In this document: positions 14,100 through 15,986 of the stretch, piece after piece
How the letters are laid out: the number at the start of each line of letters is the position of its first letter
Position numbering within the stretch: the first letter of the stretch is position 1
Source: Candidatus Poribacteria bacterium
GTDB taxonomy: Bacteria; Poribacteria; WGA-4E; WGA-3G
Assembly: GCA_965208245.1 (NCBI GenBank)
Contig: OZ242325.1
Location: 2,581,878 to 2,645,877, forward strand
DNA: 64,000 nucleotides
Reading direction: 5' to 3'
The notes under the pieces: model-generated
The model's input: the letters and a program-made list of their open reading frames with translations, nothing else
The model's database searches: none
What the model was told of the DNA's origin: nothing
Position numbers and translations under genes: made by a program

Positions 14100-15986
14100 T
14101 TGATATTTTCTGTTAGGTCCATTGTCATAACATCAAGGCAAGTTGTATTTTGGAAAAAAAAGAAAATGAGCACAGCACTAAATCTACAAGATCACGTTTT
14201 CTATAACAATCGCGGTATTGATTACGAAGAAAAAGGAGAGTACGATCTTGCCATTAAAGATTTTTCAAAAGCAATTGATCTTAAACCAGACTATGACTTA
14301 GCCTATAACAATCGCGGTGCTGTCTATCGCAGTAAGGGAGAGCACGATTTAGCTATAGAAGACTGCAACAAAGCCATACAACTGAAACCCGACTATGCCG
14401 AACCCTATAATAATCGCGGAGCTGCTTACAGCAACAAAGGTGAGATTGACCGTGCCATTGAAGACTATAACATAGCAATACAACTAAAATCGGATTTTGT
14501 TCAAGCATATTATAATCGCGGTATTGCTTACCATGAAAAAGGTGAATTGGATCTTGCCATCAAAGACTATAGCAAGGCAATAAAACTGAATCCGAAACTT
14601 GTTCACCCCTACAATAATCGTGCCAATGCCTACCGTCAGAAACGATATTTTGATAAAGCCATTGAAGACTGTCATAAGGCAATAGAATTAGAACCAAAAC
14701 TCGGTCTTGCATATTATATACGTGGTGAGGTGTGGTTAAATCTTAAAGAATGGGATAAAGCCAGATCAGACCTAACAAGTGCAAAAAACATGGGAGTTGA
14801 TATTGTCAAAGCGTTTCATAATACTTATAGAGACATTTTTAACTTTGAACGAAGAAATGACGTTAAAGTACCGAAAGACATCTCTCTAATGCTGAGAGAA
14901 TACACAGTAAACCCATTTACCACTACACAAAAGATTGTGACTCGTGATGGAGAAACCCGGGAATCTGCTGCAGTATTAGAACTATTAGAAAAATTCCGTA
15001 ATGCTGGAAAACCGTTGCGCGAATATCTCCAAGAACCCTCTTCACGTGGGATTACCACAGGATATAACGAAGCGTTTATTGTCCACCGTGAGACACGGGA
15101 TGCACTCATTGCAGAACACCCATCATCTGCAAATATTTTAAAGCCGTTTCTAATGGCGCGCGACATTCAACGTTGGCGAGTAAAACCGACAGACGAGTCA
15201 CGCAGAGAGAGACAAGATAAATGGCTTATCTGGGCGCACCGAGGCATAGACATCAATGCTTATCCAGCTATCAAGAAACACTTGGAAAAGACACGTGACG
15301 CACTGGAAAAGAGATCGGGGAAACAGGAATGGTACGAACTCCAAACAGTACCGAAGGGAACAGATACATGTGAACAACCAAAGTGTATTTTTCCTGATTT
15401 AGTAAGTGCTACCGCGTTTGCTTATGATGATGAAGGTTATTATGTAGGAAGTCCCGCATCTCTTTTACCCACAAGTGAATTATGGATTCTTGGTGTGCTG
15501 AATACAAGACCAGTATCATGGTTTTATGCGCGAACTGCACCACTGATTCGGGGACAGTTTTTAAAATTCACATCTCAATATGTCGAACAAATTCCAATCC
15601 CTGATATGGAACCGGAACAGAAGGCACTTATTCACAAAATCGTCGAATATATTCTCTATCTCAAGAAACAACCGACAACGGATAGCAAAGACCTAGCACA
15701 CTCCAGAGACTATGTGATGGTGGCATATTTCGGTAATATCCTTAACGGGTTAACCTATGAACTCTATTTACCTGATGAACTCCATAAGGGTGATAAATAC
15801 TTTTTCCAGCCGTTATTTGACGAGAAATTACCAATACTTGAAAAGATTCAAGAACAGGAAATGGATGAAATGCACACATTTCGGGATATCTTTGAGCGAT
15901 TATATGATAAGCATCATCCAGTTGCAAGGAATCTTTTCTTTTTAGATGGTGTTAAACCTATTCGCATCATTGAGAGTAAGGCATGA
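14100..15986 (+). CDS. Fusion protein: N-terminal TPR repeats (about 6) plus a C-terminal type IIG/PglX-like target-recognition (TaqI_C-like) domain, with no methyltransferase domain
   Basis: Residues about 30-230 are canonical 34-aa TPRs (AYNNRG..YxxKGExDLAIxDxxKAIxL). The C-terminal roughly 400 aa align with the C-terminal region of the 1214-aa type IIG enzyme in this same window (GITTGYNEAFIV...ANILKPFLMARDIQRW against GIVTGCNEAFII...AEIIKPFLSGRDIKRF). TTG start at 14100 with AGGTGA 7 nt upstream; an alternative ATG lies at 14166. Confidence 0.6.
   Translation: MIFSVRSIVITSRQVVFWKKKKMSTALNLQDHVFYNNRGIDYEEKGEYDLAIKDFSKAIDLKPDYDLAYNNRGAVYRSKGEHDLAIEDCNKAIQLKPDYAEPYNNRGAAYSNKGEIDRAIEDYNIAIQLKSDFVQAYYNRGIAYHEKGELDLAIKDYSKAIKLNPKLVHPYNNRANAYRQKRYFDKAIEDCHKAIELEPKLGLAYYIRGEVWLNLKEWDKARSDLTSAKNMGVDIVKAFHNTYRDIFNFERRNDVKVPKDISLMLREYTVNPFTTTQKIVTRDGETRESAAVLELLEKFRNAGKPLREYLQEPSSRGITTGYNEAFIVHRETRDALIAEHPSSANILKPFLMARDIQRWRVKPTDESRRERQDKWLIWAHRGIDINAYPAIKKHLEKTRDALEKRSGKQEWYELQTVPKGTDTCEQPKCIFPDLVSATAFAYDDEGYYVGSPASLLPTSELWILGVLNTRPVSWFYARTAPLIRGQFLKFTSQYVEQIPIPDMEPEQKALIHKIVEYILYLKKQPTTDSKDLAHSRDYVMVAYFGNILNGLTYELYLPDELHKGDKYFFQPLFDEKLPILEKIQEQEMDEMHTFRDIFERLYDKHHPVARNLFFLDGVKPIRIIESKA

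Follow-up and report, generated by a model that had tools for sequence, protein, structure and literature searches.

Why would a bacterial genome retain the target recognition domain (TRD) of a type IIG-type restriction enzyme without the methyltransferase, joined instead to an array of tetratricopeptide repeats (TPRs)? The question is raised by an open reading frame (ORF) at positions 14100..15986 (+) of a 64,000-nt stretch of Candidatus Poribacteria contig OZ242325.1 (GCA_965208245.1), the whole of which is referred to here as the window. The first-pass annotation saw in this ORF a TRD paralog devoid of a methyltransferase, shuffled within the genome among pieces of type IIG genes; it overlooked the coupled ATPase gene, although it is the ATPase that defines the unit. 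Based on the evidence presented below, the element is understood as a PrrC-like module of the ABC-HEPN type, in which the restriction partner survives as no more than the TRD and a C-terminal tail, fused to TPRs. Together, the two genes probably constitute a phage-defence or conflict module.

Results

A target recognition domain fused to tetratricopeptide repeats

The ORF is confirmed as real by the ORF list. Its mechanical start, the TTG at 14100, would give 628 aa; the sequence of the start region and a 100%-identical database protein of 606 aa (P0001) place the likely start at the ATG at 14166, and gene 1 accordingly spans 14166..15986 (+). Pfam recognises TPR_1 in five stretches (5-6 TPRs, E 1.4e-50) and TaqI_C at ORF residues 381-500 (E 4.4e-12), and it detects no methyltransferase domain in the 628-aa ORF. 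The TPR array (14193..14891, +) consists of tandem 34-residue helix-turn-helix repeats, modelled by AlphaFold2 (AF2) as paired helices (15 in all, in about 7 hairpins) with a predicted local distance difference test score (pLDDT) above 90 for residues 10-220; the number and sequence of the repeats vary among orthologues. An N-terminal endonuclease domain of the type IIG kind was not found in gene 1, the N-terminal 245 aa being TPR repeats by both Pfam and AF2. Nor does gene 1 have the N6-adenine methyltransferase domain (Eco57I/N6_Mtase, with NPPY-type motif IV) of such enzymes, and its linker sequence VNPF is not kept as NPPY, reading VNSF in relatives. Between repeats and TRD lies the end of a family-specific conserved segment with the motif VNxFTTTQ (14892..14963, +), supported by invariant columns in alignments A1 and A4, for which Pfam returned no match at E up to 10.

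What gene 1 does have in common with type IIG enzymes is the C-terminal TaqI_C-type TRD (14964..15782, +), supported by BLASTP, Pfam, M.BseCI and PADLOC. It matches the TRD of M.BseCI (7qw5, E 1e-10) and is homologous to the TRDs of type IIG and gamma-class N6-adenine methyltransferases; the PADLOC type IIG models cover gene 1 by their C-terminal 250-280 model positions only. The TRD is followed by a tail of about 65 aa (FFQPL...IRIIESKA; 15783..15983, +), recognised from alignment ends and conserved residues. The tail occurs in ATPase-linked methylases: for enzymes like protein P0131, the full-length protein whose TRD is nearest, the alignment runs up to residue 392-394 of the 394-aa C-terminal query. 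The tail is not present in the window's own type IIG enzyme, with which the alignment ends at ORF residue 561. Residues E532, L593, R600 and I602 are at least 90% conserved among 61 sequences. Conservation along TRD and tail is fairly even, with peaks at VYELYLPDELH and in the last 20 residues; a distinctly more conserved C-terminal half of the TRD, looked for as a docking module, was not found. Tail and TRD may serve as a docking site for the ATPase.

The coupled ABC ATPase and its HEPN-like domain

The start codon of gene 2 (15983..17416, +; 477 aa) overlaps the stop codon of gene 1 in the sequence ATGA, and the two genes, 14166-15986 and 15983-17416, are one translationally coupled two-gene module. 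Gene 2 encodes a RecF/SMC-like ABC ATPase, as is evident from the sequence and from Pfam (SMC_N, AAA_15, AAA_23). Its ABC head (15983..16957, +; alignments A2 and A5) comprises the elements of an SMC/RecF-type ATPase: the Walker A motif GENGSGKT, the signature-like LNEAKLS, the joint Walker B and D-loop LALDDVLIGLD with its RecF-like Walker B, and an H-loop. In 55 sequences, GENGSGK[ST], LNEAxLS and LDDxxxGLD are invariant or nearly so. The H-loop position 315 (16925-16927) is Tyr in the window and its nearer clade (25 of the 55, complete three-gene systems included); the other 30, which make up the more distant clade, have His. A weak match to TIGR00611 was obtained from NCBIfam, and PADLOC matched the ATPase to generic ABC ATPases only.

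The remainder of the protein (16958..17413, +) is an HEPN-like domain and as such a predicted RNase, an assignment that draws on AF2, Foldseek, Pfam matches in relatives and residue conservation. AF2 models this C-terminal domain as an all-alpha bundle of 5-6 helices. Comparison with the PDB by Foldseek returned HEPN proteins as 8 of the top 14 matches (2q00, 2hsb, 1ufb, Csm6, 1wol, 4nqf and HepT among them), with a probability of 0.9-1.0 and a template modelling (TM) score of 0.44-0.66. Among 23 diverse family members, Pfam identifies HEPN in 5 (best E 2.6e-6) and DUF4145, an HEPN family, in 6 (best E 9e-4); for the window ATPase itself, the only HEPN-clan profile to respond is DUF4145, at E 0.13. 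The C-terminal 150 aa alone gave no useful Pfam match, and a sequence/profile search of the domain against the PDB gave matches at chance level only.

Across 55 full-length relatives of 26-100% identity, the domain displays a conserved set of residues: R378 (17114-17116) and E382 (17126-17128) in all 55, N447 (17321-17323) and H451 (17333-17335) in 54, C389 in 50 and S450 in 46. Judged from the residues, the set R-x3-E...[S]H resembles, except for a longer spacer, the triad of PrrC and RloC, given as "Arg-X3-Glu-X36-52-His" with Ser often preceding the His (PMC2610378). Membership of the domain in the HEPN superfamily is well supported; membership in the PrrC/RloC family is not established. 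Short proteins of 140-260 aa that consist only of this C-terminal domain are encoded on many long contigs (e.g., P0395, P0420, P0426, P0430 and P0433); the HEPN-like end is what remains when the ATPase head decays, as it has done repeatedly.

Origin from a three-gene restriction-like system

By means of the ATPase, 80 metagenomic loci were fetched, and their upstream content was then tested. A TRD-plus-tail homologue is found upstream on the same strand in 67 of the 69 loci with more than 600 nt of upstream sequence, and in 57 of these 69 its gene ends at most 120 nt from the start of the ATPase, often at 0-3 nt. Where more than 2.5 kb is available upstream, the Eco57I-type methylase domain is there in 41 of 46 loci, and three have TPRs instead (the Poribacteria type); where at least 6.5 kb is available, a gene for an HKD/PLD-SNF2 helicase stands first in 29 of 32. 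The locus of P0131, looked up as a prospective check, bore out the predicted layout, its genes encoding a PLD-helicase of 955 aa, a methylase of 1253 aa, an embedded toxin-antitoxin pair and an ATPase that shares 50% identity with that of the window over the entire length. The P0131 layout and the 80-locus survey therefore identify the Poribacteria pair as a reduced, methylase-less derivative of a widespread helicase-methylase-ATPase restriction-like system, whose conserved core is the TRD-tail protein together with the ABC-HEPN ATPase. Methylase-less pairs exist elsewhere as well, namely a 364-aa TRD-tail protein with ATPase (locus L052) and a 331-aa TaqI_C protein with ATPase (locus L044), and these two versions are independent.

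PADLOC v2 has no name for the three-gene system; the best matches of the helicase are the candidate "C3a139 HKD+Snf2" and DrmD. The open-access literature yielded no description of TaqI_C outside of restriction-modification or of the three-gene system, which is weak evidence of absence. Extra genes are often embedded between methylase and ATPase: locus L047 has a UPF0175/DUF3368 toxin-antitoxin-like pair at 10100-10832, and gaps of 1.0-1.6 kb separate the two genes in L050, L051, L056, L085, L087 and L115. Similar embedding has been reported from Hma, BREX and type I restriction systems.

Distribution and variants of the family

A database search with the C-terminal 394 aa found 274 proteins, the best 120 of which are 62-100% identical over the query. 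Most of these 120 have 547-683 aa with TPR and TaqI_C and the remainder are shorter, TaqI_C-only proteins; the sole names among them are "tetratricopeptide repeat protein [Candidatus Poribacteria]". In a scan of one genome per species, the gene is present in 26 Poribacteria genomes with 60-86% identity and in largely syntenic position, and the next-best matches, which include the TRD ends of full-length cyanobacterial type IIG genes, fall to 28-40%. An exhaustive representative search gave 5054 matches, of which 150 clusters were listed, all at 147 bits or more. The family proper, at 48-63% identity over the whole query, has the TPR-TRD architecture in more than 100 protein clusters, with N-termini that vary from TIR_2 plus TPR or FRG plus TPR to an unknown 420-aa region plus TPR or 8-14 TPRs; full-length Eco57I-type enzymes of 1250-1350 aa show 35-43% identity and align through their last residues. 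The fusion of TPRs to the TRD is old and fixed. A look-up of the window's two proteins by exact sequence for contigs returned no record.

The ATPase follows the TPR-TRD gene directly in 18 of the 26 Poribacteria species loci, is disrupted in 5 and absent from 3; it also follows the TIR-TPR-TRD variants. The disrupted copies are internally deleted or frameshifted (L007, L012, L019, L020, L021). Two of the variants (L002, 5299-7892; L041, 7240-9828) place a TIR-TPR-TRD gene and the ATPase at a different conserved site, directly after genes for a GmrSD type IV restriction enzyme and an ADP-ribosylglycohydrolase, the latter an intriguing neighbour for a TIR protein (NADase/ADP-ribose signal). In one Poribacteria genome (L001/L015, 3421-9710), a 983-aa TPR-TRD protein, the ATPase and a second, 569-aa TPR-TRD protein are encoded in tandem.

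Purifying selection and exchange of the cassette

Nonsynonymous-to-synonymous rate ratios (dN/dS) against six orthologues are 0.12-0.22 for TRD and tail, 0.09-0.20 for the ATPase and 0.14-0.23 for the TPRs, compared to 0.04-0.07 for the flanking nitroreductase. Both genes are under purifying selection, hence functional, and both evolve about 3 times faster than this flank. Within the Poribacteria, the TRD-tail part is 63-93% identical and the TPR part 36-85%, with indels of repeats. A conserved TRD combined with variable TPRs is the opposite of what restriction specificity modules show.

Synonymous divergence (dS) forms a mosaic. Relative to locus L003, the cassette has a dS of 0.41-0.45 compared to 1.7 in the flank, which indicates cassette exchange between lineages; relative to L004, the TRD has a dS of 0.23 and the TPR array one of 1.9, which indicates replacement of the TPR array. 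The shuffling thus takes place between alleles of the cassette and affects mainly the TPR part. The first-pass annotation had proposed domain shuffling of specificity modules within one genome; it was right insofar as a TRD without methyltransferase gained TPRs in evolution, and the part of the proposal that places the event within this genome is not supported. Upstream of the cassette lies a diverged duplicate of the nitroreductase 5' end (13917..14090, +; from sequence and alignment), 53-57 codons long and with 66% amino acid identity to the intact nitroreductase at 17484..18053. The cassette is therefore bracketed by a direct repeat of the nitroreductase gene start, and the fragment lies likewise upstream in L040, L009, L007 and L011. 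The arrangement points to recombination at the nitroreductase site, by which the cassette would have been inserted or replaced.

Relationship to the type IIG enzyme of the window

The window also contains, outside of the module, a solitary type IIG-like enzyme that is a distant relative (34550..38194, -; BLASTP, Pfam, PADLOC). It has 1214 aa with an Eco57I methyltransferase domain (E 2.5e-37) and TaqI_C (E 4e-10) in Pfam, and scores E 1e-135 with the PADLOC model REase_MTase_IIG. Pairwise alignment by BLASTP of ORF residues 289-561 with residues 924-1207 of this enzyme gives 30% identity over 305 columns (E 2e-27, about 105 bits), which is more than low-complexity similarity, and with Pfam and PADLOC it bears out the claim that the ORF at 14100 is a TRD paralog without methyltransferase. 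That the two are recent paralogs from within the genome is, however, not supported: at least 150 database clusters score at least 147 bits, compared to about 105 bits for the window enzyme, and recent paralogy was rejected for the 30% TRD identity, the closer clusters and the different lineage of the enzyme. Compared to the nearest full-length relatives of the TRD (P0131 type), the window enzyme shows only 25% identity, confined to the middle region; it has no tail, ending about 65 aa short, and no ATPase neighbour.

A small ORF next to the enzyme (38252..38467, -; 71 aa) had been taken for a copy of the N-terminal 40 aa of its neighbour. BLASTP finds no match between the two, and a weak local alignment is all that Smith-Waterman provides: 9 identities in 30 in-register residues, at a score of 46 that is reached by 3 of 2000 shuffles against the first 90 aa and by 29 of 2000 against the whole enzyme. 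In a set of 389 sequences, the small ORF aligns better, and in register, with the N-termini of other type IIG enzymes of 1220-1360 aa, at 35-39% identity over 38-51 aa (E 1e-4 to 1e-3). By sequence comparison (BLASTP, Smith-Waterman, 389-sequence set), it is the N-terminal relic of a different type IIG gene and not a copy of the neighbour. The relic, outside of the module like the enzyme itself, lies between the type IIG gene and moaC and resembles the first 50-55 residues of type IIG enzymes of another lineage, which hints at replacement of an earlier type IIG gene at this site. The picture of type IIG pieces scattered across the window was overstated: a tblastn search of both proteins against the whole window finds two TRD regions and no further type IIG pieces. 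Taken as a whole, the observation on the ORF at 14100 is partly confirmed. Its ancestry was seen correctly (a type IIG-type TRD minus the methylase), the process was not.

Other genes near the module

Upstream of the nitroreductase fragment, a gene for a VapC-like PIN toxin (13307-13684) has an in-frame stop after codon 12 (MNLLLDTHVLLW*LDD...); the PIN ORF as listed starts late, at the TTG at 13379, and Pfam covers profile positions 24-117 only. It is a probable pseudogene. The preceding 105-aa ORF (12993-13310), possibly the antitoxin, has no Pfam match. Downstream of the module, at a distance of 1.2 kb, there is a second, separate TPR gene (19095-19922, +), whose product is about 32% identical to the ORF's TPR part; this second gene is kept in syntenic Poribacteria loci at 57-96% identity.

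Discussion

Considering the evidence in combination, we favour, with a probability of roughly 0.6, the explanation of a module, derived from a restriction-like system, in which the TRD-TPR protein controls a latent ABC-HEPN RNase or does the sensing for it. In the ancestral enzyme's place, the TPR array (TIR-TPR or FRG-TPR in sister clades) has taken over from the nuclease/N-terminal and methyltransferase parts. By analogy with PrrC, the remaining TRD-plus-tail protein would bind the ATPase-RNase and hold it silent on the DNA. The TPR array, as the most variable part, would sense a phage- or stress-derived ligand; an ATP-dependent rearrangement would then release the HEPN RNase (or the TIR domain in the variants), and the released effector would shut down translation or the cell in an abortive infection response. 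Binding and silencing by the TRD-tail part are proposed because of the strict end-to-start coupling of the two genes and the analogy to PrrC, a nuclease held in a latent state by the EcoprrI restriction complex until an attack of the phage T4 peptide Stp on that complex sets it free (PMC3710099; 10.1101/2024.01.29.577857). As a class, ABC-HEPN fusions in linkage with restriction operons are well established (PMC3710099). The module also bears signs of the conflict type: fast evolution, exchange of the cassette, swap of the TPRs, TIR and FRG N-termini in sister clades, and the location of the TIR variant next to GmrSD.

Several observations weigh against this explanation. Every step of the mechanism is a proposal by analogy. 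The module is largely syntenic and vertical in the Poribacteria and there is no obvious defence island in the window; vertical, syntenic inheritance also fits a lineage-specific housekeeping role. Regarding the effector, the AF2 model of the HEPN-like domain is of moderate quality (pLDDT 68) and the Foldseek E-values are 0.08 or higher. The arginine of the canonical HEPN motif Rx4-6H is not conserved: the window has R444-x6-H451, yet most relatives carry V, I or T in place of R444, and from R/K442 the distance to the His amounts to 8 residues (x8). The spacer from Glu to His, at 56-71 residues, is beyond the published PrrC/RloC range. Profile-level homology to PrrC/RloC was not found for the ATPase, AAA_13 matching its P-loop only (residues 22-71, E 3e-4, below the Pfam cut-off) instead of extending across the protein, and NCBIfam giving no match of PrrC type. 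The H-loop "linchpin" His of ABC proteins is normally needed for ATP hydrolysis, and the Tyr in the window clade may cripple it. Absence of the ATPase from 3 species and its breakage in 5 imply that the TRD protein may act on its own. Lastly, the TRD part of the full-length AF2 model of the TPR-TRD protein has a pLDDT below 50, too poor for a DNA-binding surface to be read from it.

The alternatives need to be weighed against the same body of evidence. That the ORF arose recently within this genome as a paralog of the TRD of the window's type IIG enzyme, maybe as a spare or trans-acting specificity subunit, is highly improbable: the significant homology of the two TRDs and the type IIG-like relic adjoining the enzyme agree with it, yet the identity is a mere 30% with at least 150 closer clusters elsewhere, the window enzyme belongs to another lineage (25% identical to enzymes like P0131, without the tail and without an adjacent ATPase gene), the TPR-TRD fusion is conserved in 26 species, the TRD is conserved and not hypervariable, and the partner gene encodes an ATPase and not a methylase. 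Decay of a three-gene leftover into an inert remnant, with TPR fusion and ATPase both drifting to loss, could be read from the missing helicase and methylase, the broken (5/26) or absent (3/26) ATPase in Poribacteria loci, the change of the H-loop His to Tyr and the many short database proteins reduced to the HEPN-like domain; it is made very unlikely by intact ORFs of 60-90% identity across the phylum, a dN/dS of 0.09-0.23 in all three parts, the preserved start/stop overlap and the gain of new N-terminal domains (TIR, FRG, extra TPRs), and the Tyr variant occurs in complete three-gene systems too.

Two further alternatives assume a functional pair. In a split modification-dependent system, the TRD-TPR protein would read the methylation or sequence state set by an unlinked methylase and the ATPase-HEPN protein would be the restriction arm. 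Retention of the TRD under purifying selection, the methylation-based nature of the ancestral system and an orphan N6_N4 methylase near the module in some relatives (L038) speak for such a division of labour, which we nevertheless regard as rather unlikely, given that no methylase is conserved beside the pair, that an HEPN effector acts on RNA and not on DNA, and that TPR, TIR and FRG N-termini suggest protein sensing and signalling. A non-defence role has somewhat better prospects, while still being doubtful. The pair could be a Poribacteria-specific, DNA-associated complex of a RecF-like ATPase with a DNA binder that recognises sequence or structure, for chromosome maintenance, repair or regulation, or else the TPR protein could be an "eukaryote-like" factor of host interaction. 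TPR proteins are classically counted among the eukaryote-like proteins of sponge symbionts, and the database name is merely "tetratricopeptide repeat protein"; the module is syntenic, mostly vertical and adjoins housekeeping genes, and the ATPase has a RecF-like Walker B and its weak TIGR00611 match. Opposed to this are the descent from a helicase-methylase-ATPase restriction-like system, the HEPN-like domain with its conserved residue set of the catalytic type, the TIR and FRG variants with the GmrSD neighbour, and the exchange of a cassette that evolves faster than its flanks.

Regarding the known systems to which the regulated ABC-HEPN RNase can be compared, the closest parallels are PrrC, which is paired with EcoprrI (type Ic), and RloC. 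The module resembles both in the order of an N-terminal ABC ATPase domain and a C-terminal domain of the HEPN superfamily, in the module a predicted RNase, with R-x3-E...[S]H (PMC2610378, PMC3710099), and PrrC shares the genetic coupling to a DNA-recognising restriction component, by which partner it is known to be kept latent. The module differs in having no sequence-level membership in either family and a spacer of 56-71 instead of 36-52 residues, and neither a PrrC box nor a region for tRNA-Lys recognition was identified in its ATPase. Its partner is a type IIG-type TRD, not HsdMSR, and the Poribacteria partner is predicted from its domain content to lack restriction and modification activity. 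The ABC-HEPN fusions ERFG_01251 and APECO1_4465 (Anantharaman et al. 2013), compared by description only, likewise place a classical HEPN domain after an ABC ATPase and occur in settings of conflict, and the structural matches of the module's C-terminal domain are classical MNT-associated HEPN proteins, as for ERFG_01251; the contexts of these two are CRISPR loci and prophages, unlike a TRD partner. With type IIG enzymes (Eco57I/MmeI class) and the TaqI/BseCI methylases, gene 1 shares the TaqI_C TRD fold family and the conserved entry motif "GxxTGxNxAF"; it differs from them by the absence of nuclease and methyltransferase domains and by a TRD that is conserved rather than hypervariable.

The ancestral three-gene system recalls Hma/BR and DISARM in combining a nuclease-fused SNF2 helicase with an N6-adenine methylase and an ATPase, and in carrying embedded genes (e.g., the toxin-antitoxin pair in L047). 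In Hma/BR, the ATPase is a DUF499 STAND/AAA+ protein and the methylase has a nested TRD (PMC12839542), and HmaB had originally been reported to be an m5C methylase (PMC8565338). The three-gene system differs in its ABC/SMC-like ATPase and its Eco57I/type IIG-like methylase with C-terminal TaqI_C TRD, and PADLOC detects in it a partial match to the HmaA or DrmD helicase core only, with no match to HmaC. Membership in Hma/BR was rejected for the different class of ATPase and the missing HmaC, and there is no helicase or methylase beside the window pair. MADS, of which MAD6, MAD7 and MAD8 are mandatory components in the MacSyFinder model (10.1101/2023.03.30.534895), was rejected too: the best PADLOC match, mad3 at E 2e-13, reflects a generic ATPase, NCBIfam MAD3 matches the ATPase at E 0.004 compared to a cut-off of 420 bits, MAD6-8 are absent and the neighbours are unrelated. 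With PARIS (AriA-AriB), the module shares the idea of a nuclease held on an ABC ATPase scaffold pending a trigger from the phage, along with a weak AriA match in PADLOC, and with Avs/STAND proteins that of variable TPR arrays which sense ligands and are joined to exchangeable effectors, TIR for example; having neither a TOPRIM partner nor a STAND NTPase, it resembles these systems by design, not by family.

There is a bolder form of the regulated-RNase explanation, which we put forward as a speculation that is probably wrong: the restriction enzyme may have been domesticated as a pure decoy or guard. The TRD-tail stub, having given up restriction and modification altogether, would be the bait for phage anti-restriction factors (DNA mimics, Stp-like peptides) or for phage DNA, the TPRs would widen the range of ligands, and engagement would free the ABC-HEPN RNase or the TIR/FRG effector. 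If true, a "restriction-less PrrC system" would have become fixed across a whole phylum of sponge symbionts, and in a large unnamed family of helicase-methylase-ATPase systems the tail of the TRD would be where ABC-HEPN backup nucleases generally dock.

The importance of the study, moderately surprising from a specialist's view, is that a gene known by its repeats turns out to belong, as one of two genes, to a conserved module for which an RNase effector is predicted; neither a generic "TPR protein" nor a restriction fragment gone astray describes it. It uncovers a tight, apparently unnamed linkage in which an ABC-HEPN ATPase comes after the TRD-tail end of Eco57I-type methylases, and which extends the paradigm of PrrC and EcoprrI from type I to type IIG-like enzymes. 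The versions found in the Poribacteria, in L052 and in L044 are natural "minimal" constructs that isolate the part of the restriction enzyme expected to communicate with the backup nuclease. They open to direct testing an old question, namely by what means restriction enzymes keep the abortive nucleases linked to them silent and then let them go.

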